This document shows, piece after piece, positions 1 to 29,809 of a DNA stretch of 39,189 nt. Origin of the DNA: a virus (lineage: Duplodnaviria; Heunggongvirae; Uroviricota; Caudoviricetes); the IMG/VR virus record IMGVR_UViG_2703718862_000013; one strand, given 5' to 3'. Numbering within the stretch: position 1 is the first letter of the stretch; every line of letters starts with the position of its first letter. A program made the translations under genes and the position numbers. Below the pieces are notes generated by a model. That model saw only the letters and a list, made by a program, of their open reading frames with translations. It did not search any database and had not been told where the DNA came from.

Positions 1-100
1 CGCGGCGATTTTTTTGATACCGATTTGCATTTCATTTGATACTGCTGAAAAACGCCGATACGCAACTTATTTGATACTAAATCGGCGCTTTTCTTTTGAG
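1..100. repeat. Terminal repeat array, candidate transposase-binding sites at the prophage right end
   Basis: Four copies of (T)TTGATAC / GCCGATAC at 16-20, 38-42, 57-61, 73-77; window starts CGCGGCG, resembling Mu R1 interior (TGAAGCGGCG...). Confidence 0.4.
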
Positions 101-123
101 TTTTAGAATGAGTTTTTAAGCGC

Positions 124-861
124 TCATTCACTCTCTTTCAAACCAGTTTTAACTGTTTGTGGTTTTGGGTAAGGCTGGACTTTGAATAGCTTTGTGTTGA
201 GGCGTTTTCTGGCCCTCTTGTTCAGAAACCGGATGTAACGAAACTGTCGGAACTTATGCACACTGGCTCTGTCGATATTAGCCCTCAGATGTTCACCTCG
301 TTGTCCGCCTCGTTTAATGGCATTCCTGCAAATCTCGTGATACCACTCGCCATCAAGTTCATAGAATATTGTTTCATGGCTGCCTACATAATCAAAATTG
401 CTTGCCTGATACACGACACCAAGACAGCCACAACGCTCATCTGCAAACGACTGAACCCACTGTACCTGCGGATAAAGCTGCCTGATTAGCTTGAGCGCGT
501 AACTGATTGCCCTTGATTCGGAATTTCTCGGCATACAGTCATGCATCCATAGCCGGTTCAGCTCCATATATTCTCGGTTCTGCGTACCCGTTACGACGCG
601 TGCACCACTGTTTGGGTTAAGGGCGTAACCCCATTGCATTACGCCAACAAGTTCCCGTTCTGAAAATATGCCCAGATGAAGGTAGGAGTTATTTACGAAA
701 CGGTGGCTGTAATGTTTATTGACGATAACCAGTCTGGCCAGCCAGCAACTTATTGTCTCAACCCGCAACTCACGGGAACCATAACCAACGATATTGTCGT
801 TATAGCGAATAAGTTCAGGCGTGCTGATGATACGGGATGTGACTTGCTTTCTGTTCCCCAC
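124..861 (-). CDS. mom: Mom DNA-modification protein (adenine modification, anti-restriction)
   Basis: Recalled Mu Mom signature [11 protein letters not shown]...[26 protein letters not shown]...[11 protein letters not shown]...RGGQRG...LRAN; last gene before phage end. Confidence 0.85.
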
Positions 862-1015
862 GACAGGATTTCCTTGTGTATGTGGGGTGCTCTGTGGCGC
901 TCGGAGATGTGATTTGATTGAGGGTTTTACAGCGCGGACATTTTACTTCCAGATAACTGAAACTGGCCCGTGCCAGTAGCTTATTGCAGTGTCGGCACCG
1001 TATGTTTCGATACAT
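815..1015 (-). CDS. com: Com zinc-finger translational activator of mom (ORF open to 1060; start at MYRNIRC likely)
   Basis: [10 protein letters not shown]...VKCPRCK matches Mu Com C4 zinc finger; overlaps mom 5' end as in Mu. Confidence 0.8.
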
Positions 1016-1039
1016 GGCCGCATAACCTCCTGCTTTGTT

Positions 1040-1210
1040 GTTGATGCCTTTCTCATGCAATCGATCGACAAAAACGATCGATTCGATTTGTTTAATTGAT
1101 ACAACAAATAGATTGAAAAGTCATCAACAATGATTCAGGGCGGTGATTATTTACTTAAAGAAAACGAAGAGTTAGGCGGTGAAAACGATCATAAAATGAT
1201 CATTTTATTG
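1040..1210 (-). promoter_or_regulatory. Candidate mom operon regulatory region with two palindromic GATC pairs
   Basis: CGATCG-acaaaaa-CGATCG (1051-1069) and GATCAT-aaa-ATGATC (1187-1201) upstream of com. Confidence 0.35.
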
Positions 1211-1275
1211 ACTTTTTATCCAGTGAAGGTAGGATCGCGCGTATATGTAGTATGTTTCAAATCAACAGGATACTA

Positions 1276-1314
1276 CATAAAAGGGAAACCCAGCATAGCT
1301 GGAACTATGCTGGG
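1276..1314 (-). terminator. Intrinsic terminator, minus strand, insulating the com-mom unit
   Basis: Perfect 10-bp stem CCCAGCATAG/CTATGCTGGG (1289-1314), 6-nt loop, U-rich tract after it on minus strand. Confidence 0.5.
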
Positions 1315-1501
1315 CCGATTTAGACAAGTTTGCATCAATGCTTTACTTCGGGACTACATAAATGGCGACTCAGATAGCGCGAACTATTCTGGGTCAATCT
1401 GTAAAAAACTGCATCAATGCTTCACTCTGAGCTCGTGGTGTATCCTATGATATTCCCCGGCCTCCTGTAAAGCAGAGATGCATCTGTTCAGGCAGGAGAA
1501 A

Positions 1502-1708
1502 ATGGATAAACTGACCACCGACCAAAAGTTACAGGCTGCGCGAATTGCAGCTGATATCACAATTGCAGCAATGACATCCACCAGTTGTGTCTTTACCTCT
1601 TTTCATACAGCTGGTGATTCATCAGCTATGCAATTATGGAACGCGTGCTTTTCTGATGTAATTCGGGCAATCAGCGAGTCAACTGACCCTCACGAACCGC
1701 AAAAATAG
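1502..1708 (+). CDS. Hypothetical small protein (68 aa from MDKLTT)
   Basis: AGGAGA Shine-Dalgarno before ATG at 1502; converges on 1671..1871. Confidence 0.3.
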   Translation: MDKLTTDQKLQAARIAADITIAAMTSTSCVFTSFHTAGDSSAMQLWNACFSDVIRAISESTDPHEPQK

Positions 1709-1871
1709 CGCATCTTGGGGTACACAGGATCTGCATCGCTATCCACATTGCAGTGGTGAAGTTTCGATCCTGTAATGTATTTTCATCAAGTCCTGAACGT
1801 AGCGCATTGATAATTTCTGCGCTTAATATTTCCAGACCTTTGGTATCGGGCTGCTTTTTGTTCTTGTCCAT
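1671..1871 (-). CDS. Hypothetical small protein (66 aa)
   Basis: GAGGAA Shine-Dalgarno 7 nt upstream of ATG; follows terminator/promoter-like element. Confidence 0.4.
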   Translation of the reverse strand: MDKNKKQPDTKGLEILSAEIINALRSGLDENTLQDRNFTTAMWIAMQILCTPRCAIFAVREGQLTR

Positions 1872-1907
1872 GATTATTTCCTCTGACTGGTATATACATC
1901 GCCCATG

Positions 1908-1945
1908 AAAATCAAACCGACAGGAGAAGCTGTCGGTTTGTATTG
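1908..1945. terminator. Bidirectional terminator-like hairpin
   Basis: Stem AACCGACAG/CTGTCGGTT with T-rich flanks on both strands; sits after stop of 1946..2191. Confidence 0.45.
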
Positions 1946-2191
1946 TTACATCATGGCACTGTCAGTTCCGGGCTGAACCGGCTCTGGTTGCTCTACGGGC
2001 TGAGGCTCATTCTCCGTGCTGTTTTCAGCCGGAGAATGGCCAACCATTCGGGCCAGCACTTCATCAACATATGCGTCGATTTGTGCCTCAAAATCCTTGC
2101 GAACCTGCGCCTTCAGCACGCGGTTCACTTCTTCAGAATAAAGTGCCTGTTTGACAAGCTCTTCAGTAACCGTGCCTTTAATCTCTGGCAT
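1946..2191 (-). CDS. Hypothetical protein, acidic with Pro/Glu-rich C-terminus
   Basis: ORF in operon position after esterase gene. Confidence 0.45.
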   Translation of the reverse strand: MPEIKGTVTEELVKQALYSEEVNRVLKAQVRKDFEAQIDAYVDEVLARMVGHSPAENSTENEPQPVEQPEPVQPGTDSAMM

Positions 2192-2226
2192 GAATATTCT
2201 CCTTTCCTTTTCTGGTTCACAAAAAA

Positions 2227-2412
2227 TTAAATCTGACCGGAGTCTTTCGGCTGCGGCATTACAGCACCGCTTTTTATCTTTTCCTCTGCGGCTGCATCAA
2301 TTTTATTTCGAAAATAATTTCGGATAATTTTGTAACCTCCGCTGAGGAGATAAAGTAGACACACACACGTGCAAAAATAAAGCATAAATGTATGTAGTAT
2401 TGGCATAATCAC
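2227..2412 (-). CDS. Hypothetical small membrane protein
   Basis: Single hydrophobic helix ILHTFMLYFCTCVCLLYLLSGGY; likely ATG at 2406 with GGTGA upstream. Confidence 0.4.
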   Translation of the reverse strand: MIMPILHTFMLYFCTCVCLLYLLSGGYKIIRNYFRNKIDAAAEEKIKSGAVMPQPKDSGQI

Positions 2413-2441
2413 TCACCATTTTAAATAAAATGAATTACCCG

Positions 2442-4523
2442 TCATTTATTCACATTAGACGGAGAGACCGCATCGTTAACCTGCACTTTAATTGTGTCAA
2501 ACAACATCGGGTAAGTGGCTGCATTGCCGGTAATATCGGTCAGTGTCAGTTGATCCACCGTGAACCCGGCATTCACCCACTTCACAAGTTCAAATGGTTC
2601 ACCATCTTTCCCGTCCAGAACTGGGGTAACACTCATGCTATTACCACCTGCAAACCGTAACGAGAGCGTATGCCATTCATGATCAAAGACACCATACGAT
2701 CCTATCTGTTGACTTCCGCTCCCTTTGTGATACATCACATTCAGGTTAGCTGAATCCGTTTGCAGGAAACATGATGCGATGAGGTTATTTTTTCCGTCAC
2801 CGTCAGGCCAGTTACTTACAGCCCAGTAAATACCAACACCATACCGGTTTTCCGCAATGCCCGCATCCGATGGAATTTTGAAACGGAGGGAAATATCACC
2901 ACCTCTGGCGAACAAATCCCTGGCATTATCAGCTGTGATCGGATGATACATTTTCCATGAGGCCATGCTGTTAGGCGCTTTATTCACCCTTAACGCTTTG
3001 TTACCACCTGTTGCAGCAGCATCCGTGACAAAGGTTGCTTTTCCGGAAGCCGCATTCCACCCCTGATCTTTCATTGGTTCTGTCGGGGCGTTTGCAGTAT
3101 ACGAAACGATGATCTTCATCTGATCGCTCACGTCCTTCACATCCCCGGTGGGTTCAGGCTCACTCTTACCGGTATCAGAATGTTCTGTTGCCGTTACACC
3201 GCGGAAGAAAGCAGATTTTTGTCCTGACAATGTCAGAATCGCTGTTGCCAGACGGTCTGAAATAATTCCACGGCGCGCCCATGAACTGAAATGGCTTGCC
3301 CTGTCGTTTGATGTCCAGTTAGTCGAATCGCGACTTATGGCACCATAATAGCCAATACCTGGAATATCCGGGTCTTCATCTGGATTATTTGTCGGTACAT
3401 TTTTTCCATTTTCATCCACAACAAATGGAACAAAGTGAATGTTCTTTGCTTCATTAGCATATTTGCCATAAACAGCTTTGTATTGTTCTGGATATGTATT
3501 TTTCCAGTAATACGTCGTATCACCACAGATCCACGGTACAGAAGCCATATCTCCGGCTGGAGATTGCGCAGAAAAAGCCGAAAGTTCACGCCTGAATGTT
3601 TCGACCATCGTCACAAACAGACCGGAATGTTCAGCATGTTTTCCTGTTTTCAGATCATTCTCGCCCTGCATCCAGACAACGGACAGGAGAATATTTCTGG
3701 GGTTACTGCTGAGAGCCGCTTTTGTTCGGTTAACAAGATCGCTGAACAAAGGTTTATTGACTCCCCAGCGCGATGATGCAGATGTTGCTCCGGAAGCTTC
3801 AGTAAATTCACCATCAGCACCATCGGTAAATGCAGAGCCTCCTCTGGCACAGGGAACCAGAAGGATACCAGCCTCTTCCGGGATAAAGGGCAGGAGTTTT
3901 TTTGCAATATGCAAACCCTGGCCGACACAACCATACTGACCTTTTGAAAGATCTGCTTTTGGATGATTATGGTTACTCATATCCAGCACATCATGAAGAC
4001 AGTGATCTGCCGGAATTATATCGTTGTAGGCGCATTCAACCCCGCCAGGTGTAACCGTGTTACGGCGAGCCAGCTGTTTAATACGTGGATCAGGTCGATC
4101 ATAGGTATCAGGCAAAGGAAGACCTTCACCAAATGACGATGCATTCGACTGACCAGCAATAACAACCACGTAATACCAGGACGGAGTTTGACCTGCAACT
4201 TTATCTCCTGCTGAGGAAGTGTATGTTTCCGCATTGTTCCAGTCTGACGGTTCAGTAGTACCGGCAACATCAGCACTTAACGGAATGACAGCACCAATAC
4301 CCGCTCCGGTAATTTCCACGTTCGGATCACCGGATACTGGCCTTACCCACAGGCAATCCCGTGTATTAAAACTGATGAGACAGTCAGCAAATGTCATACC
4401 TCCTTTCGTTTCAGCCGGAGGAAAGGGAGCCTCAAGAAATGCCGCTGTACCACCGGAAACTTTAACGGTAAAGTTTCCGGGCATTGATGATAGTTGAACC
4501 CATTTGGACGTCATAATATTCAT
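2442..4523 (-). CDS. nanS-p: NanS-p-like sialate 9-O-acetylesterase (SGNH/SASA domain) with N- and C-terminal extra domains
   Basis: VVVIAGQSNA...GEGLPLP, PRIKQLAR, LHIAKKLLPFIP, VPCARGGSAFT, WMQGENDL, CGDTTYYWK, EDPD..GYYG, ARRGIISDR match recalled NanS (YjhS) family; AGGA RBS. Confidence 0.75.
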   Translation of the reverse strand: MNIMTSKWVQLSSMPGNFTVKVSGGTAAFLEAPFPPAETKGGMTFADCLISFNTRDCLWVRPVSGDPNVEITGAGIGAVIPLSADVAGTTEPSDWNNAETYTSSAGDKVAGQTPSWYYVVVIAGQSNASSFGEGLPLPDTYDRPDPRIKQLARRNTVTPGGVECAYNDIIPADHCLHDVLDMSNHNHPKADLSKGQYGCVGQGLHIAKKLLPFIPEEAGILLVPCARGGSAFTDGADGEFTEASGATSASSRWGVNKPLFSDLVNRTKAALSSNPRNILLSVVWMQGENDLKTGKHAEHSGLFVTMVETFRRELSAFSAQSPAGDMASVPWICGDTTYYWKNTYPEQYKAVYGKYANEAKNIHFVPFVVDENGKNVPTNNPDEDPDIPGIGYYGAISRDSTNWTSNDRASHFSSWARRGIISDRLATAILTLSGQKSAFFRGVTATEHSDTGKSEPEPTGDVKDVSDQMKIIVSYTANAPTEPMKDQGWNAASGKATFVTDAAATGGNKALRVNKAPNSMASWKMYHPITADNARDLFARGGDISLRFKIPSDAGIAENRYGVGIYWAVSNWPDGDGKNNLIASCFLQTDSANLNVMYHKGSGSQQIGSYGVFDHEWHTLSLRFAGGNSMSVTPVLDGKDGEPFELVKWVNAGFTVDQLTLTDITGNAATYPMLFDTIKVQVNDAVSPSNVNK

Positions 4524-5236: not shown

Positions 5237-5386
5237 AACCTCGGTTTACGGGAAACGGTAAATAAGGCGGCGAATGCCCTGCCATCGGACGGCACCGCTG
5301 CGGCAGCAAACAGACTCGCCACCCCAGTAAATATTAATGGTGTTCCTTTCGACGGGACGCGGGATATAAACATTACGTCAGGAATG
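5237..5386. repeat. Inverted repeat, left arm (duplicate of tail-fibre constant region)
   Basis: About 150 bp, ~92% identical to reverse complement of 6521-6671; same reading frame NLGLRETVNKAA..NRLATPVNINGVPFDGT.DINITSGM. Confidence 0.85.
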
Positions 5387-5608
5387 CCGGAATCAACGGC
5401 CAATCAGCGTTATGTTACAGGGGTAAGACTGGGAGCGCAGGCATTAAGCAGCGGACTGGAATATAATTACTCCCTGTCATCAGGAAATGTGATTACCGGT
5501 TTTAAGACTGACGGAGACTGGGAAATGCGTGGTGGTGATGACCGTGTTTATTACAGACAGATACAATATTGTATTAATGGGAATTGGGTATCCGCTGCAA
5601 GTATTTAA
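5237..5608 (+). CDS. Silent alternative tail-fibre C-terminal cassette (Sv'-like), no start or promoter in this orientation
   Basis: Frame continues from IR-encoded constant residues into a 73-aa alternative C-terminus related to, but diverged from, the current S C-terminus. Confidence 0.7.
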   Translation, partial: NLGLRETVNKAANALPSDGTAAAANRLATPVNINGVPFDGTRDINITSGMPESTANQRYVTGVRLGAQALSSGLEYNYSLSSGNVITGFKTDGDWEMRGGDDRVYYRQIQYCINGNWVSAASI

Positions 5609-5725
5609 TTAACGGCTCATGGCGTACGGCAGGCAGCGCCTGATATATGCGTTATCTCAGACAACCCCTGTCCGTATATAGCGATAGTATTATTCCTGTT
5701 TTTATCATTGATTCACATGGTGATG

Positions 5726-6250
5726 TTTATGCAACTGATTAATGTTAAACGATATTACCCGGAAAACACCCTCTATGGTAATGATGTACAGTATTTTCAG
5801 AGTGAAGATGGTAAGGATTTCTACGAGTCCCTGCCATTATTCACCAAAAAATATAAACTTTGTATAACACCTGACAGCGGCATTATCTGCTCAATATCAC
5901 AGGACGCTTCGGCGCTGTATCCTGCGGGGTTCTCTGTGGTTGAAGTCGACGAACTCCCTGAAGGTGCTGATATTTCGGGTAACTGGAAGTTTGATAATGG
6001 CGTGATCTCCCGTATTCCGGTTAACTACGCAAGAAAACTGGAAGCAATGCGCCAGTTATATCTTAATCAGGCATATGAAAAAATTAATGACTGGAGAACA
6101 GAATTACAGCTGGGCACCATCAGTGATGAAGACAGAGCCGCACTTACCCGATGGATGGCATACATCAGTCAGGTGAAAAAAATGGAACCATCCGCCATTA
6201 AAACTGAAGCTGAATTTGATGCCATTAAATGGCCCGAACAGCCTGAATAA
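5726..6250 (+). CDS. Tail-fibre assembly chaperone (Tfa, U'-like), silent in this orientation
   Basis: Typical Tfa C-terminus ...RAALTRWMAYISQVKKM...EFDAIKWPEQPE; GGTGA RBS before ATG 5726 (ORF open from 5708). Confidence 0.8.
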   Translation, partial: FMQLINVKRYYPENTLYGNDVQYFQSEDGKDFYESLPLFTKKYKLCITPDSGIICSISQDASALYPAGFSVVEVDELPEGADISGNWKFDNGVISRIPVNYARKLEAMRQLYLNQAYEKINDWRTELQLGTISDEDRAALTRWMAYISQVKKMEPSAIKTEAEFDAIKWPEQPE

Positions 6251-6251
6251 C

Positions 6252-6280
6252 TTAAAGGGTGCTTATCGCACCCTTTTTCT
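6252..6280. terminator. Terminator hairpin between convergent U' and S
   Basis: GGGTGC-ttat-GCACCC followed by TTTTTC on plus strand. Confidence 0.55.
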
Positions 6281-6284
6281 TTCA

Positions 6285-7196
6285 TCAGACAGATGAAACT
6301 GTACGCCATGCATTACTGATATATATCTGCACAGGACGGAAATAAACCCCGCCAATGTTATCGGCAGAGTTTTTTCCTGTTTCCTGCACGTTAATACCGG
6401 AAAGCATACAACCGGAAGGCGCACTGTAATTCCATGACATTTCATTGCCTCCGGGTGAATGATAGCTCTGTGCTCCAAGCTGAACGTTCTGTACATACCG
6501 GCCATCTGCGGTTGACTGCGTCATTCCTGACGTGATGTTGATATCCTGCGTCCCGTCGAAAGGAACACCATTAATATTTACTGGGGTGGCGAGTCTGTTT
6601 GCTGCCACGGCGGTTCCACCCGATGGCAGGGCATCAGCAGCCTTATTTACCGTTTCCCGTAAACCGAGGTTATTGATAAAGGTTCCTTTGTCCGGGATAT
6701 CCGCGCCATTCTGGTCCCTGCGCAGATAACGCGCATCGCCTTCTCCCTTACTGTAAACATCAAGATTCAGACGAGCCGTCGGTTTATCCAGTACATCGTC
6801 AAAATTCCGGGATTTCTCCAGTGCTCCCACATCAGCAGCAGCCAGACTGTCTTTTCCTGATAATCCTCCCAGCCCCAGATGACGGCGGGCAGCAGCCTGT
6901 GCTTCTGCACCTGCATCCGCAATCTCCTTAAGGTTGTTTTTCCGGCTGTATGCGTTTGCTGCAATGATTGCCTTAATGGCTGTCACCAGCTGGTTCAGTT
7001 TTGCCTTATCCGGCTGAACCTTTCCTTCTGTCAGAATGGCAAGCAGCTCTGCCTGCACGATGTTCAGCCAGTCCTGACCGATATGGCTGATCCCTTTGCG
7101 TCCGTCACCTTCAGTAAACCATTTAACCTGCGTGCCCTGAGAGGGGGCCAGTGGTGGCATATCGGTCACACCTGAATTGTTGTCGACAAAATACAT
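6285..7196 (-). CDS. S: Tail fibre protein (S-like), constant N-terminus plus currently joined variable C-terminus
   Basis: Position after baseplate genes; C-terminal third lies inside invertible segment. Confidence 0.85.
   Translation of the reverse strand: MYFVDNNSGVTDMPPLAPSQGTQVKWFTEGDGRKGISHIGQDWLNIVQAELLAILTEGKVQPDKAKLNQLVTAIKAIIAANAYSRKNNLKEIADAGAEAQAAARRHLGLGGLSGKDSLAAADVGALEKSRNFDDVLDKPTARLNLDVYSKGEGDARYLRRDQNGADIPDKGTFINNLGLRETVNKAADALPSGGTAVAANRLATPVNINGVPFDGTQDINITSGMTQSTADGRYVQNVQLGAQSYHSPGGNEMSWNYSAPSGCMLSGINVQETGKNSADNIGGVYFRPVQIYISNAWRTVSSV
6521..6671. repeat. Inverted repeat, right arm (inside S coding sequence)
   Basis: Reverse complement matches 5237-5386. Confidence 0.85.
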
Positions 7197-27363: not shown

Positions 27364-27735
27364 TTACTTCGTCTTTCCTGCCGGAACAGCAGGCGTTCCG
27401 GCCATATCAGTAAATTCATGTTGTCGCCGCGCCTCCAGACGACGAATACTGGCCTTGTCCACGTTGCAGTTCTTGATCACCGCCAGCAGTTGCAGGTTGT
27501 AAGTGACCGATGCCCCAAACGTGAACGGCTCCGGCGCAGGAGGCACCAGGCAGTCAGCCAGCCATTCAGCGGGGATCGGCACCGGCTTCACAGGCACGTA
27601 TTTCACAGACGGCCCGGCGCACCCGATCAGCCACATCATCAGGAACAGGGGCAGAGGCCGCAGGCACTGCTGCCAGCGACCGGCGGACAACGCTCTGCTG
27701 CCCCTCGCTGTGCTGAATGTTCTGTTGTTTTTCAT
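27364..27735 (-). CDS. Outer-membrane spanin lipoprotein (o-spanin), start uncertain
   Basis: Lipobox-like L-I-G-C preceded by hydrophobic stretch, Pro-rich; overlaps i-spanin in another frame. Confidence 0.5.
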   Translation of the reverse strand: MKNNRTFSTARGSRALSAGRWQQCLRPLPLFLMMWLIGCAGPSVKYVPVKPVPIPAEWLADCLVPPAPEPFTFGASVTYNLQLLAVIKNCNVDKASIRRLEARRQHEFTDMAGTPAVPAGKTK

Positions 27736-28066
27736 TCGTGGCCGCCTCACTGATTTGTGAAATGAGTTGCAGGGTGCGTTGCTGGTTTGCCAGCACCAGA
27801 CGGGCTTCGTCCCGTTCGCGCACAAGCACATGATTATTGTCCTCAAGGCGCTGCGTCTTCTGGTGCATTCCCCATACCACGGCAGCCAGCACGCTCATCA
27901 CCCCCAGCGCCGCCATACAGCCTCCGGCAATCAGGGCCGGTAAGGGATTATTCACCGCAGCCACAGCACACCCCGCAGCAGCACAACGGCACACAGCAGC
28001 GCAATCATGAGCGGTCGCCAGAAGCGGTTCAGACTTTCGGCAAATCGTAGCGACATAACCATTCAT
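27566..28066 (-). CDS. Inner-membrane spanin (i-spanin), start uncertain
   Basis: N-terminal TM segment followed by coiled-coil; directly after endolysin. Confidence 0.55.
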   Translation of the reverse strand: MNGYVATICRKSEPLLATAHDCAAVCRCAAAGCAVAAVNNPLPALIAGGCMAALGVMSVLAAVVWGMHQKTQRLEDNNHVLVRERDEARLVLANQQRTLQLISQISEAATNEKQQNIQHSEGQQSVVRRSLAAVPAASAPVPDDVADRVRRAVCEIRACEAGADPR

Positions 28067-28529
28067 CCGCCGAACGGCGGGCCTCAAGACCGGGGAGTTT
28101 CACCCCCTTCGAATAAATCCAGCGGATGTACTGCTTACAGGACGCGGGCATCTGCCCGGCATTGATCAGGCGCAGAAGCGTGGAGTTGCGGAAGTTCGTT
28201 TCACCAGCCCAGAAGATCCACGAAGCCAGCGCCACCGTCTGACCACGGGTAAGCGGCACCTGAACACGCCGATCAATGGCCGCAAAGGCCCATTTCATGT
28301 CCTTTTCCAGTAGTTCCAGGCATTCTTCATCCGTCAGGGTCATACCCGGTTTCACATCCGGGCCGGTATGGCCGTAACAGATGGTTGGTGTACCGGTGGG
28401 ATCGATATACGTGGAGTTTTCTTTCCCTTCCCAGTAACCGGTGTAATGCGTGGCAATCGTGAACGTCCCGGCACCGGCCAGAACAAGGGCAATCAGCTTT
28501 TTACGCAGTGGTGCGGGGAGTTTTGGCAT
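28029..28529 (-). CDS. lys: SAR endolysin (phage lysozyme)
   Basis: Hydrophobic N-terminus LIALVLAGAGTFTIA; YIDPTG..TICYGHTG and NFRNSTLLRLIN match recalled P21-type lysozyme. Confidence 0.85.
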   Translation of the reverse strand: MPKLPAPLRKKLIALVLAGAGTFTIATHYTGYWEGKENSTYIDPTGTPTICYGHTGPDVKPGMTLTDEECLELLEKDMKWAFAAIDRRVQVPLTRGQTVALASWIFWAGETNFRNSTLLRLINAGQMPASCKQYIRWIYSKGVKLPGLEARRSADEWLCRYDLPKV

Positions 28530-28600
28530 TGTTACGCTGTCTCATGATGTTCTCTGAGTCAGCGTAACGGTGAAGGAAAGGCGGCAGGCTTTGCGGAATA

Positions 28601-29023
28601 TCAGAAAAGTGGCGGTTGCGTTCTTGCCAGATGCAGACGGCGCTGTTCGCGTATGACGGTATAAATCTGGGTTTCTGACATCCTGTAATGGCGGCGCAGG
28701 GTTTCAATTTTTTCGCCCTGGCTCCAGCGGGAAAAAATCTCATTATTGCGCAGTTCGGTGAAAAGGGATTCACCGACCGGGAGATAATAACCACGCCCGC
28801 CCATGTACCCGGCCTGTGCGGCCGCAACTTTACGGGCAAGCATTCCTGCCTGAGCAGGTTCAATCCCCTGACGGTGCAGTTCAGCACTGATCACATCAAC
28901 CAGGTCCCGCAGCGTGCCGGGCCAGTTCTTTTTCAGCTCATCATCAGGAATGTCATCCAGACGGTCAATCAGCGCGTGCAGCTGTTCGCTGTCACCAAAC
29001 ATGCTCATCTGTGTTTCAGCCAT
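28601..29023 (-). CDS. Mor/C-family transcriptional activator
   Basis: C-terminal HTH region ...YYLP.G.SL...LRN.EIF..W.....I..L...Y..S...IY.VIR..RR...QPPLF resembles recalled Mu Mor; Mor versus C not distinguishable here. Confidence 0.75.
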   Translation of the reverse strand: MAETQMSMFGDSEQLHALIDRLDDIPDDELKKNWPGTLRDLVDVISAELHRQGIEPAQAGMLARKVAAAQAGYMGGRGYYLPVGESLFTELRNNEIFSRWSQGEKIETLRRHYRMSETQIYTVIREQRRLHLARTQPPLF

Positions 29024-29055: not shown

Positions 29056-29088
29056 TTTAAAATAAAAATCCCGCGCTGTGGCGGGATT
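29056..29088 (-). terminator. Intrinsic terminator hairpin, copy 1
   Basis: AAATCCCGC-GCTGTG-GCGGGATTT with U-tract on minus strand. Confidence 0.6.
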
Positions 29089-29363
29089 TAGAGGCGCTGT
29101 AAATCATAACCCGAAATGAGCTGTGTATTTATTGATCATTTTCCGGTGTAACTATATGATAAAGATCGTTTTTATTTTTAAAAATACAAACCCTGAAGGA
29201 GTTTTTCTTATCAAAAAGCTTGTGCATATTGCGGGTTATTGTTGTTTCATCAACATGAAAACCAATTATCCCAACTCTTAAAGCACACCAGGCTTGCTCC
29301 AGTGCAAAAACAAATAATTTCAGTCTGCCTGACAGCGTTCCACCGGAATAAAGGAAGATATCC

Positions 29364-29786
29364 ATGAAACAACCTCCATCTTTGCTTTTATCGTGCCCAC
29401 CAGAACTGGCCCATGAACTCAATGATCTGGCGAAAGAGTATAAACTTACAAATCATAATATAGAAGCAGCAACACTTAGTGCTGCCGGAAGCGATATTGT
29501 ATTGATCGTTCTGGCCGCAGCTTCATGCGATGGGTTCTGGCAGGCATTAGCCAGTATGTTTCAGACGTGGTTACATCGTAAACCAACAAAACAAACACCC
29601 CCGGAAAAGAAAGTTATTCGTAGCGTCATTGTTCGTAGCTGGGAACACTATCAGGAGACAACTAAACAAACTGAATTTTATAACTTTGATGCTGATGAGC
29701 TGGCTAAATTGATAGCGTTATATGAAAAACCAGATGAAACAATTGGTTGCATAATCCCGTCAGAAACGGAAATTCAGGAAAAATAA
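29364..29786 (+). CDS. Moron-encoded hypothetical protein (140 aa), opposite strand to surrounding operon
   Basis: Strong AAGGAAG Shine-Dalgarno; AT-rich island; stop abuts terminator hairpin. Confidence 0.5.
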   Translation: MKQPPSLLLSCPPELAHELNDLAKEYKLTNHNIEAATLSAAGSDIVLIVLAAASCDGFWQALASMFQTWLHRKPTKQTPPEKKVIRSVIVRSWEHYQETTKQTEFYNFDADELAKLIALYEKPDETIGCIIPSETEIQEK

Positions 29787-29809
29787 AATCCCGCACTGTG
29801 GCGGGATTT
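29776..29809 (-). terminator. Intrinsic terminator hairpin, copy 2 (immediately after gemA stop)
   Basis: AAATCCCGC-ACTGTG-GCGGGATTT with UUUUAUUUUU on minus strand. Confidence 0.6.

Follow-up and report, generated by a model that had tools for sequence, protein, structure and literature searches.

How does a Mu-like prophage that encodes a signal-anchor-release (SAR) type endolysin and a pair of spanins, and in which no holin is apparent, lyse its host? The question is raised by IMG/VR virus record IMGVR_UViG_2703718862_000013, a stretch of 39,189 nucleotides (hereafter the window) that corresponds to a complete Mu-like prophage of Escherichia coli, with its lysis genes on the minus strand throughout. 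A preliminary description of the window had recognized in it a lysis cassette formed by a SAR endolysin and overlapping spanin genes, placed directly downstream of a Mor/C activator, and had seen no obvious holin. According to our analysis, the cassette serves a Mu-like transposable prophage as its late lysis module and most likely works without a holin, as phage Mu does (we give this reading a probability of roughly 0.8), a DUF2730 protein homologous to the Mu gp25 "releasin" promoting the release of the endolysin. The three genes first described lie exactly where they had been placed, the interval 27364-28529 running from the stop codon of the outer spanin gene to the start codon of the endolysin gene. 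With their neighbours, in the order of transcription, the features of the module are the following.

28601-29023, minus strand: Mor/C-family late transcription activator, 140 aa (PF08765, E 1e-30; PHROG 532 "late transcriptional activator", E 7e-45).
28530-28600, minus strand: spacer of 71 nt between the C-like activator gene and the endolysin gene, putative site, by synteny, of a C-dependent late promoter equivalent to Mu Plys.
28029-28529, minus strand: SAR-type endolysin, a T4-lysozyme-like muramidase of 166 aa, homologue of Mu gp22 (PF00959 Phage_lysozyme, E 6e-37).
27952-28062, minus strand: small conserved open reading frame (ORF) with a single transmembrane domain (TMD), 36 aa if read from ATG 28062, 34 aa if read from ATG 28056, which is better conserved; not in RefSeq.
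27566-27964, minus strand: i-spanin, the subunit of the inner membrane, 132 aa from a GTG start, in the place of Mu gp23 (PHROG 214 "Rz-like spanin", E 3e-31).
27364-27735, minus strand: o-spanin, the outer-membrane lipoprotein subunit, a 123-aa precursor, homologue of Mu gp23.1 (PF23793 LysC, E 4e-16).
27127-27354, minus strand: TraR/DksA-type C4 zinc-finger protein of 75 aa, in the place taken by gp24 in Mu (PF01258, E 2e-12; TIGR02419, E 8e-21).
26838-27146, minus strand: DUF2730 protein, 102 aa, homologue of Mu gp25 "releasin" (PF10805, E 7e-20).

The reference for this module is Mu itself, where experiments established that gp22 is a SAR endolysin and gp23/23.1 are the spanins (Chamblee et al. 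2022, mBio 13:e00813-22, PMC9239132). In the same work, disruption of the outer membrane was shown to require gp23/23.1, and no membrane protein of Mu behaved as a holin (PMC9239132). Timely release of gp22 needs gp25, a DUF2730 protein with an N-out/C-in TMD, and this requirement is conferred by the basic residues K6/K7 located just before the gp22 SAR helix (PMC9239132). In the Mu genome record AF083977, Mu_25 is labelled "releasin". The window cassette is syntenic gene-for-gene with the Mu order C-22-23-23.1-24-25-26. It lies upstream of gp26/gp27 in both phages, homologues of gp26 and gp27 and the large terminase gene following the DUF2730 gene in the window. Identities between the lysis proteins and their Mu counterparts range from 24 to 40%, while the gp26-like protein is 63% identical to Mu gp26 (E 7e-40). 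Both phages have a muramidase with an E-X8-D-X5-T triad and an N-terminal SAR-like helix with adjacent basic residues before it, both have overlapped spanin genes with a lipobox cysteine (as in 23/23.1), and both are devoid of a holin-like multi-TMD late gene. On the other hand, the SAR domain contains two glycines in the window versus a six-glycine run in Mu, and the Mu middle genes 18-20, including those for the membrane proteins gp19 and gp20, are absent from the window prophage. The identities of the genes, the sequence features relevant to membrane topology, and the synteny and homology with Mu are read directly from the window.

The endolysin is the clearest member of the cassette. Its match to PF00959 is above the gathering score, it belongs to PHROG 7 (endolysin, E 8e-51), and it is 39% identical to Mu gp22 (E 8e-33 to 9e-35). 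The catalytic triad, read from the translation, is E34-GKENSTYI-D43-PTGTP-T49, and by tblastn the SAR endolysins of phages 21 and 434 are about 39% identical to it over the catalytic domain. The N-terminus reads MPKLPAPLRKK followed by LIALVLAGAGTFTIATHY. Segment L12-Y29 is weakly hydrophobic, with a best Kyte-Doolittle mean (KD19) of 1.39 against 2.2-2.3 in the neighbouring TMDs; 9 of its 18 residues are Ala, Gly or Thr, and it is preceded by the basic residues K3, R9, K10 and K11. Judged from the protein sequence, this composition is that of a SAR domain. The comparison covered about 37 related loci, drawn from IMG/VR, E. coli and Citrobacter, plus one deeper lineage, L072. LRKK and the SAR segment are kept across the 37 or so loci, and L072 has LRKR. 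The sequence supports the SAR endolysin as first described. Phage 21 (R21, S21-68) and P1 Lyz resemble the window in having an endolysin of T4-lysozyme fold with a weakly hydrophobic N-terminal signal-anchor, which is uncleaved in those systems.

The second carrying element is the DUF2730 protein, fourth among the annotated genes after the endolysin and fifth if the small ORF is counted. The match to PF10805 covers the whole family profile (residues 6-97 against profile positions 3-101 of 102), and the protein is 34-35% identical to Mu gp25 (E 3e-17 to 5e-18). Its TMD, V10-M28 (KD19 1.80), is rich in Ser, Ala, Thr and Gly (ILSATATAGGIF) and is immediately followed by R29-K30 and further basic residues, so that the positive-inside rule predicts an N-out/C-in topology. 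Across close relatives this TMD is invariant, and so is the junction, either RK or RR. The AlphaFold model, of low confidence (predicted local distance difference test, pLDDT, 63), places helices at residues 2-28, 35-52 and 58-101. The genetic context is also that of a releasin: the prophage carries a Mu transposase, GemA, Mor/C and gp27, and its endolysin carries R9-K10-K11. Klebsiella phage Kp4866-3 was considered for comparison and set aside, since it has a DUF2730 protein, but a different endolysin and multi-TMD ORFs.

As to the holin, a hydropathy scan of all coding sequences found no multi-TMD protein in the late region, where the membrane proteins are confined to the cassette; among ORFs of at least 60 aa, the absence of a holin was therefore correctly noted at first. 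The preliminary description had further suggested looking for small ORFs with two or three TMDs near 28530-28600 and 26838-27146. Neither place yielded one, as the spacer 28530-28600 contains no membrane ORF and 26838-27146 is the DUF2730 gene. Two items had escaped it, namely the releasin assignment and the conserved single-TMD ORF of 34-36 aa. The window also lacks a two-TMD pinholin gene of the type found in the phage 21 system, and by analogy with Mu we would expect DUF2730-dependent release in its place.

Altogether, the basic R9-K10-K11 flank, the full-length DUF2730 protein with its RK junction, and the synteny point to a Mu-type, holin-less, releasin-assisted pathway. DUF2730-dependent endolysin release, holin absence and a C-dependent promoter are taken here from Mu genetics, and the sequence of events could be as follows. 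A single Mor/C-type activator would switch on a late promoter in the 71-nt spacer. The resulting transcript would carry, in this order, the SAR endolysin, the membrane peptide of 34-36 aa, the i-spanin, the o-spanin, the TraR-type zinc-finger protein and the DUF2730 protein, and then the packaging genes. The endolysin would be exported by Sec and kept tethered and inactive in the inner membrane by its weak N-terminal helix, retention in the membrane being due to R9-K10-K11 on the cytoplasmic side. The DUF2730 releasin, which would have a single TMD, N-out/C-in, and a helical domain in the cytoplasm, would promote the escape of the SAR helix to the periplasm, where the released endolysin would refold and degrade murein. 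The complex of i-spanin and o-spanin would then break the outer membrane.

Several observations weigh against this reading. In Mu, the cytoplasmic domain of gp25 was described as anionic and containing two His, which was reported for gp25 and not as a family criterion (PMC9239132). Residues 29-102 of the window protein have 14 K+R versus 11 D+E and no His, and are net basic, while Mu gp25 by the same count has 11 K+R versus 12 D+E. The identity to gp25 is just 34-35%. Moreover, DUF2730 proteins also occur beside non-SAR endolysins, and the presence of DUF2730 alone does not make a releasin (Chamblee et al. 2022, PMC9239132). In the spacer 28530-28600, the alignment to Mu Plys is weak and a C-dependent promoter was not found by sequence. 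An additional conserved TMD peptide without a Mu counterpart could supply a holin-like or regulatory function and so alter the mechanism. Finally, A18-G19-A20 of the endolysin resembles an AXA site, and cleavage of its N-terminus as a signal peptide is possible.

In the last case the endolysin would be secreted in the conventional way, by a Sec signal peptide that is cleaved off, and expression level alone would set the timing of lysis. The N-terminus does look like a signal peptide: its n-region is basic, its hydrophobic core (LIALVL) is short, and A-G-A stands at 18-20. However, at 18 residues the hydrophobic segment is long, it abounds in Gly, Ala and Thr like SAR domains, and an active lysozyme that was constitutively secreted would be toxic once made. 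Furthermore, Mu gp22, which among characterised proteins is the nearest relative, at 39% identity and with the same N-terminal layout, was found by experiment to be membrane-tethered and to need a pinholin or gp25 for its release (PMC9239132). We consider secretion of this kind very improbable, and keep the SAR endolysin, released with the help of the DUF2730 protein, as the preferred reading.

The additional TMD peptide is the sole mildly novel element of the cassette, and two questions arise from it, whether it is a gene and whether it is a holin. The ORF encodes M(VM)SLRFAESLNRFWRPLMIALLCAVVLLRGVLWLR and ends in ...GVLWLR, with a KD19 of 2.33. Its overlap with the endolysin gene, at the 3' end of the latter, is 28-34 nt, and that with the start of the i-spanin gene is 13 nt. 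Mu is without it: its gene 23 begins before gene 22 has ended, and no spacer exists. In the relatives, the ORF is present with equal length in 21 distinct nucleotide versions that belong to three lineages, an E. coli/Shigella type, a Citrobacter type and an IMG/VR contig of higher GC content, with 73% nucleotide identity. Its peptide appears in databases solely as "Uncharacterised protein [Shigella sonnei]", coming from few pipelines. We found no family for it in Pfam, PHROG or NCBIfam; the best sub-threshold hit was GTA_holin_3TM, E 0.03, for one variant. In a phmmer search of 1.8 billion representatives, there was one true relative, which forms the sole other cluster at 50% identity, and one spurious repeat protein. 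Similarity to Mu gp20 was nil (z 0.4-0.5). To i-spanin TMDs there is a marginal resemblance, with z 2.6 for Mu gp23 and a maximum of 3.8, reached by one variant, which is too little to claim an origin by duplication. Programmed frameshifting from the small ORF into the i-spanin frame is unlikely, as no slippery heptamer was seen at the junction in the three sequences inspected. As a separate observation, locus L028 (IMGVR_UViG_2526164665_000023) has an apparent one-base change before the endolysin stop codon, near a short A run, that joins the endolysin C-terminus in frame to the small-ORF TMD (...DLPKSLNRFWRPLMIALLCAVLLLRGVLWLR). This fusion could be either an assembly error or natural.

The simplest way to dismiss the small ORF would be that it is not a gene, the 64-nt spacer between endolysin and i-spanin being kept for the ribosome-binding site of the GTG-initiated i-spanin or for mRNA structure. 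In this respect, an invariant ...CGGGGTGTG... stands at the place expected for the Shine-Dalgarno sequence of GTG 27964, and part of the conserved 3' end of the small ORF may be the i-spanin ribosome-binding site. The i-spanin frame is likewise stop-free through this stretch, RefSeq does not annotate the ORF, and, as mentioned, only one other cluster at 50% identity turned up in the protein search. Against the dismissal, all 18 of the 18 replacement states in TMD codons are apolar or small, an outcome with a chance of about 2e-5 under a crude uniform-codon model. Variable columns number 11, 7 and 15 of 20 each at the first, second and third codon positions, which is 3-periodic with its lowest value at position 2 of the small-ORF frame (p 0.04). 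The Leu codon of endolysin ...W-L-C... is nearly always TTA or CTA, which preserves the internal ATG of the small ORF; in one variant it is TTG, turning that ATG into GTG. Besides, the ORF keeps its length unchanged down to 73% nucleotide identity. Over 20 variants, the ratio of nonsynonymous to synonymous polymorphism (pN/pS) was 0.44 in the small-ORF frame, compared with 0.96 for the endolysin frame and 2.36 for that of the i-spanin. With the three deepest lineages alone, however, pN/pS was about 1, no different from column shuffles, so the case for a gene rests on retained hydrophobicity, codon periodicity and retention of the start codon. On balance, these sequence patterns make it likely that the small ORF is a real gene, and we regard a non-coding spacer as doubtful.

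If the ORF is a gene, it is tempting to see in it the missing trigger. The peptide of 34-36 aa would then be a minimal holin, pinholin or antiholin-like timer that depolarises or perturbs the membrane and so controls SAR-endolysin release, leaving DUF2730 as an accessory. A small conserved membrane ORF inside the late lysis cassette does sit at the usual place of a holin or antiholin, its hydrophobicity is maintained (with the chance value given above), and the overlap of its stop codon with the i-spanin start suggests that it is expressed together with the lysis genes. In addition, Mu genetics is silent about a peptide that Mu does not possess. Characterised holins, on the other hand, are generally well above 34 aa. 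The peptide has one TMD and lacks a hydrophilic C-terminal tail, its match to a holin family stays below significance in the single variant that gave one, and the three deepest lineages show weak purifying selection at the codon level. A releasin homologue and a basic SAR flank, which suffice in Mu, are both kept as well. Because of its size and the lack of a hydrophilic tail, a holin role of the peptide is unlikely, and a cassette governed by such a trigger seems improbable to us. Release assisted by DUF2730 remains the preferred reading, and the small TMD peptide, as far as its sequence and distribution indicate, is probably an accessory membrane protein of the cassette, specific to its lineage. 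More tentatively, it might be a new lineage-specific part of holin-less, Mu-type lysis, such as an anti-releasin, co-releasin or minimal pinholin-like timer by which the retention or release of the SAR endolysin is tuned.

The spanin pair completes the cassette. The i-spanin is 24% identical to Mu gp23 (E 4e-6). The preliminary description had seen in it a TM-plus-coiled-coil protein encoded at 27566-28087. The gene is real and the TMD is evident (residues 7-34, KD 2.22), but the span overshoots, having been drawn from the stop to the first start codon in frame, and translation starts at GTG 27964. RefSeq uses this codon too, the ATG of the Citrobacter type is aligned with it, and the PHROG profile begins there. 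A longer i-spanin starting at ATG 28066 and overlapping the endolysin gene, in the style of Mu gene 23, was rejected, since the upstream extension has a pN/pS of 2.36 and its third codon position is the least variable. Regarding the coiled coil, the AlphaFold model from the single sequence (mean pLDDT 83) predicts long helices at 8-98 and 109-126 with a Pro/Ala linker between them, but a simple heptad count was not clear-cut, which leaves the coiled coil putative.

The overlapping out-of-frame lipoprotein-like ORF, by contrast, was confirmed as the o-spanin. In addition to PF23793, it matches PHROG 3001 (E 8e-42) and is 40% identical to Mu gp23.1 (E 1e-14). Its start at ATG 27735 has GAGG 9 nt upstream and is kept in all relatives, unlike TTG 27690, which was discarded for its lack of conservation. 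The lipobox is LIGC, with Cys39 and, as for sorting to the outer membrane, no Asp but Ala at +2, and all relatives have L[ITS][GA]C at this place. The mature part, of 85 aa, contains 11 Pro. Being encoded inside the i-spanin gene, the signal peptide has a basic n-region that is unusually long, at about 25 aa. The o-spanin gene begins within the i-spanin gene in a different frame and ends 202 nt past the i-spanin stop, which is the "overlapped" architecture. The spanin genes of P2 LysB/LysC are also overlapped, and those of lambda Rz/Rz1 are fully embedded. Compared with these systems, the window o-spanin matches the family PF23793, "Rz1-like lysis system protein LysC"; the i-spanin resembles Rz remotely or not at all, and PHROG 214 is the sole family it matched. 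Current annotation obscures the pair. The RefSeq "LysC" coding sequence, 27364-27606, uses an internal GTG start, so the protein is left without signal peptide and lipobox Cys, and the i-spanin is a "hypothetical protein" in RefSeq or, with another start, an "endopeptidase" in some strains.

Upstream, the Mor/C activator gene ends 71 nt before the endolysin gene, in line with the preliminary description, which placed the lysis module directly downstream of it. The activator is closer to Mu C (40% identity, E 1.5e-35) than to Mu Mor (28%). Mu has both, while the window prophage has a single Mor/C-family activator, and just one Mor-family gene is annotated in RefSeq for the near-identical prophage. 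The two-step cascade of Mu, from Mor to C, thus seems reduced to one step here. In Mu, a C-activated late promoter lies in the same spacer between C and lys, according to the annotation of AF083977. No sigma-70 consensus promoter was found in 28530-28600, as expected for an activator-dependent promoter. Downstream of the spanins, the gene at the position of Mu gp24 encodes a clear TraR/DksA zinc finger in the window, with weak similarity to Mu gp24 (E 0.025).

Regarding its occurrence, the prophage is about 99.9% identical to one inserted in bcsA of strain STEC2018-607, with 99.7-100% when the two are compared block by block. The STEC2018-607 counterpart contains the Mu-type transposase, an AAA ATPase, Gam, a gp16/GemA-family gene, Mu-type head and tail genes, and com/mom. 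Of 5426 complete E. coli genomes, 231 contain the lysis region (2.6 kb) with at least 90% identity, which indicates a maintained module. In a search of a phage collection, the cassette appeared solely as an "inserted Mu-like phage" within two Stx phages, and a search of genome contigs returned a single locus, in Citrobacter braakii.

Some features of the prophage outside the lysis genes are also worth recording. At window positions 1-30, the prophage splits the cellulose synthase gene bcsA. A 1.4-kb segment (5237-6671) lies in opposite orientation in an otherwise about 99.9% identical prophage of NZ_CP075697.1; it adjoins a recombinase-family gene and tail-fibre and fibre-assembly genes, and is probably a Gin-type invertible G segment in its other orientation. 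A gp436-family gene at about 17700-18120 (minus strand) is flagged as a pseudogene with an internal stop in a near-identical RefSeq prophage, which may be defective. A "tRNA-OTHER" is annotated by RefSeq amid head-morphogenesis genes of the near-identical prophage, at about 21318-21405 (plus strand); ARAGORN found zero tRNA or tmRNA in the whole window. In the accessory region near com/mom, at about 1950-2410 (minus strand), there are small genes of the DUF826 and DUF1378 families, the latter product being hydrophobic and of about 60 aa. Both families usually have their home in lambdoid phages, near the lysis genes. Finally, a low-GC (about 0.44) insertion at 29066-29800 separates the gp16/GemA-family gene from the C-like activator. 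It contains two opposed ORFs, 29364-29786 (plus strand, 140 aa) and 29129-29365 (minus strand, 78 aa), neither with a match in Pfam, and a terminator-like hairpin at 29089-29066. The DETEC-S792 and 90-3040 prophages do not have the insertion, and in them Mor/C lies about 70 nt after gp16. It looks like a moron or accessory cargo.

What does this cassette mean for Mu-like phages? The logic of the module was already worked out for Mu in 2022, and the prophage family that carries the present copy occurs in about 4% of complete E. coli genomes. For annotation, our results correct RefSeq in three places: the o-spanin is truncated, the i-spanin appears as "hypothetical" or "endopeptidase", and the small TMD ORF is missing. 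The finding of "no holin" in Mu-like prophages is to be expected, and should be interpreted alongside the DUF2730 gene. If its function is conserved, the basic, His-free cytoplasmic domain of the window DUF2730 protein counts against the Ser/His-protease model discussed for gp25. If the small peptide does act on the retention or release of the endolysin, the inner-membrane control of lysis would have four parts here versus two in Mu, and the peptide would offer an experimental handle on releasin action. Natural variation in this prophage family provides a comparison set for the releasin mechanism: among close relatives, the DUF2730 TMD and the SAR flank both show strong conservation, and the extra TMD peptide adds one more variable.

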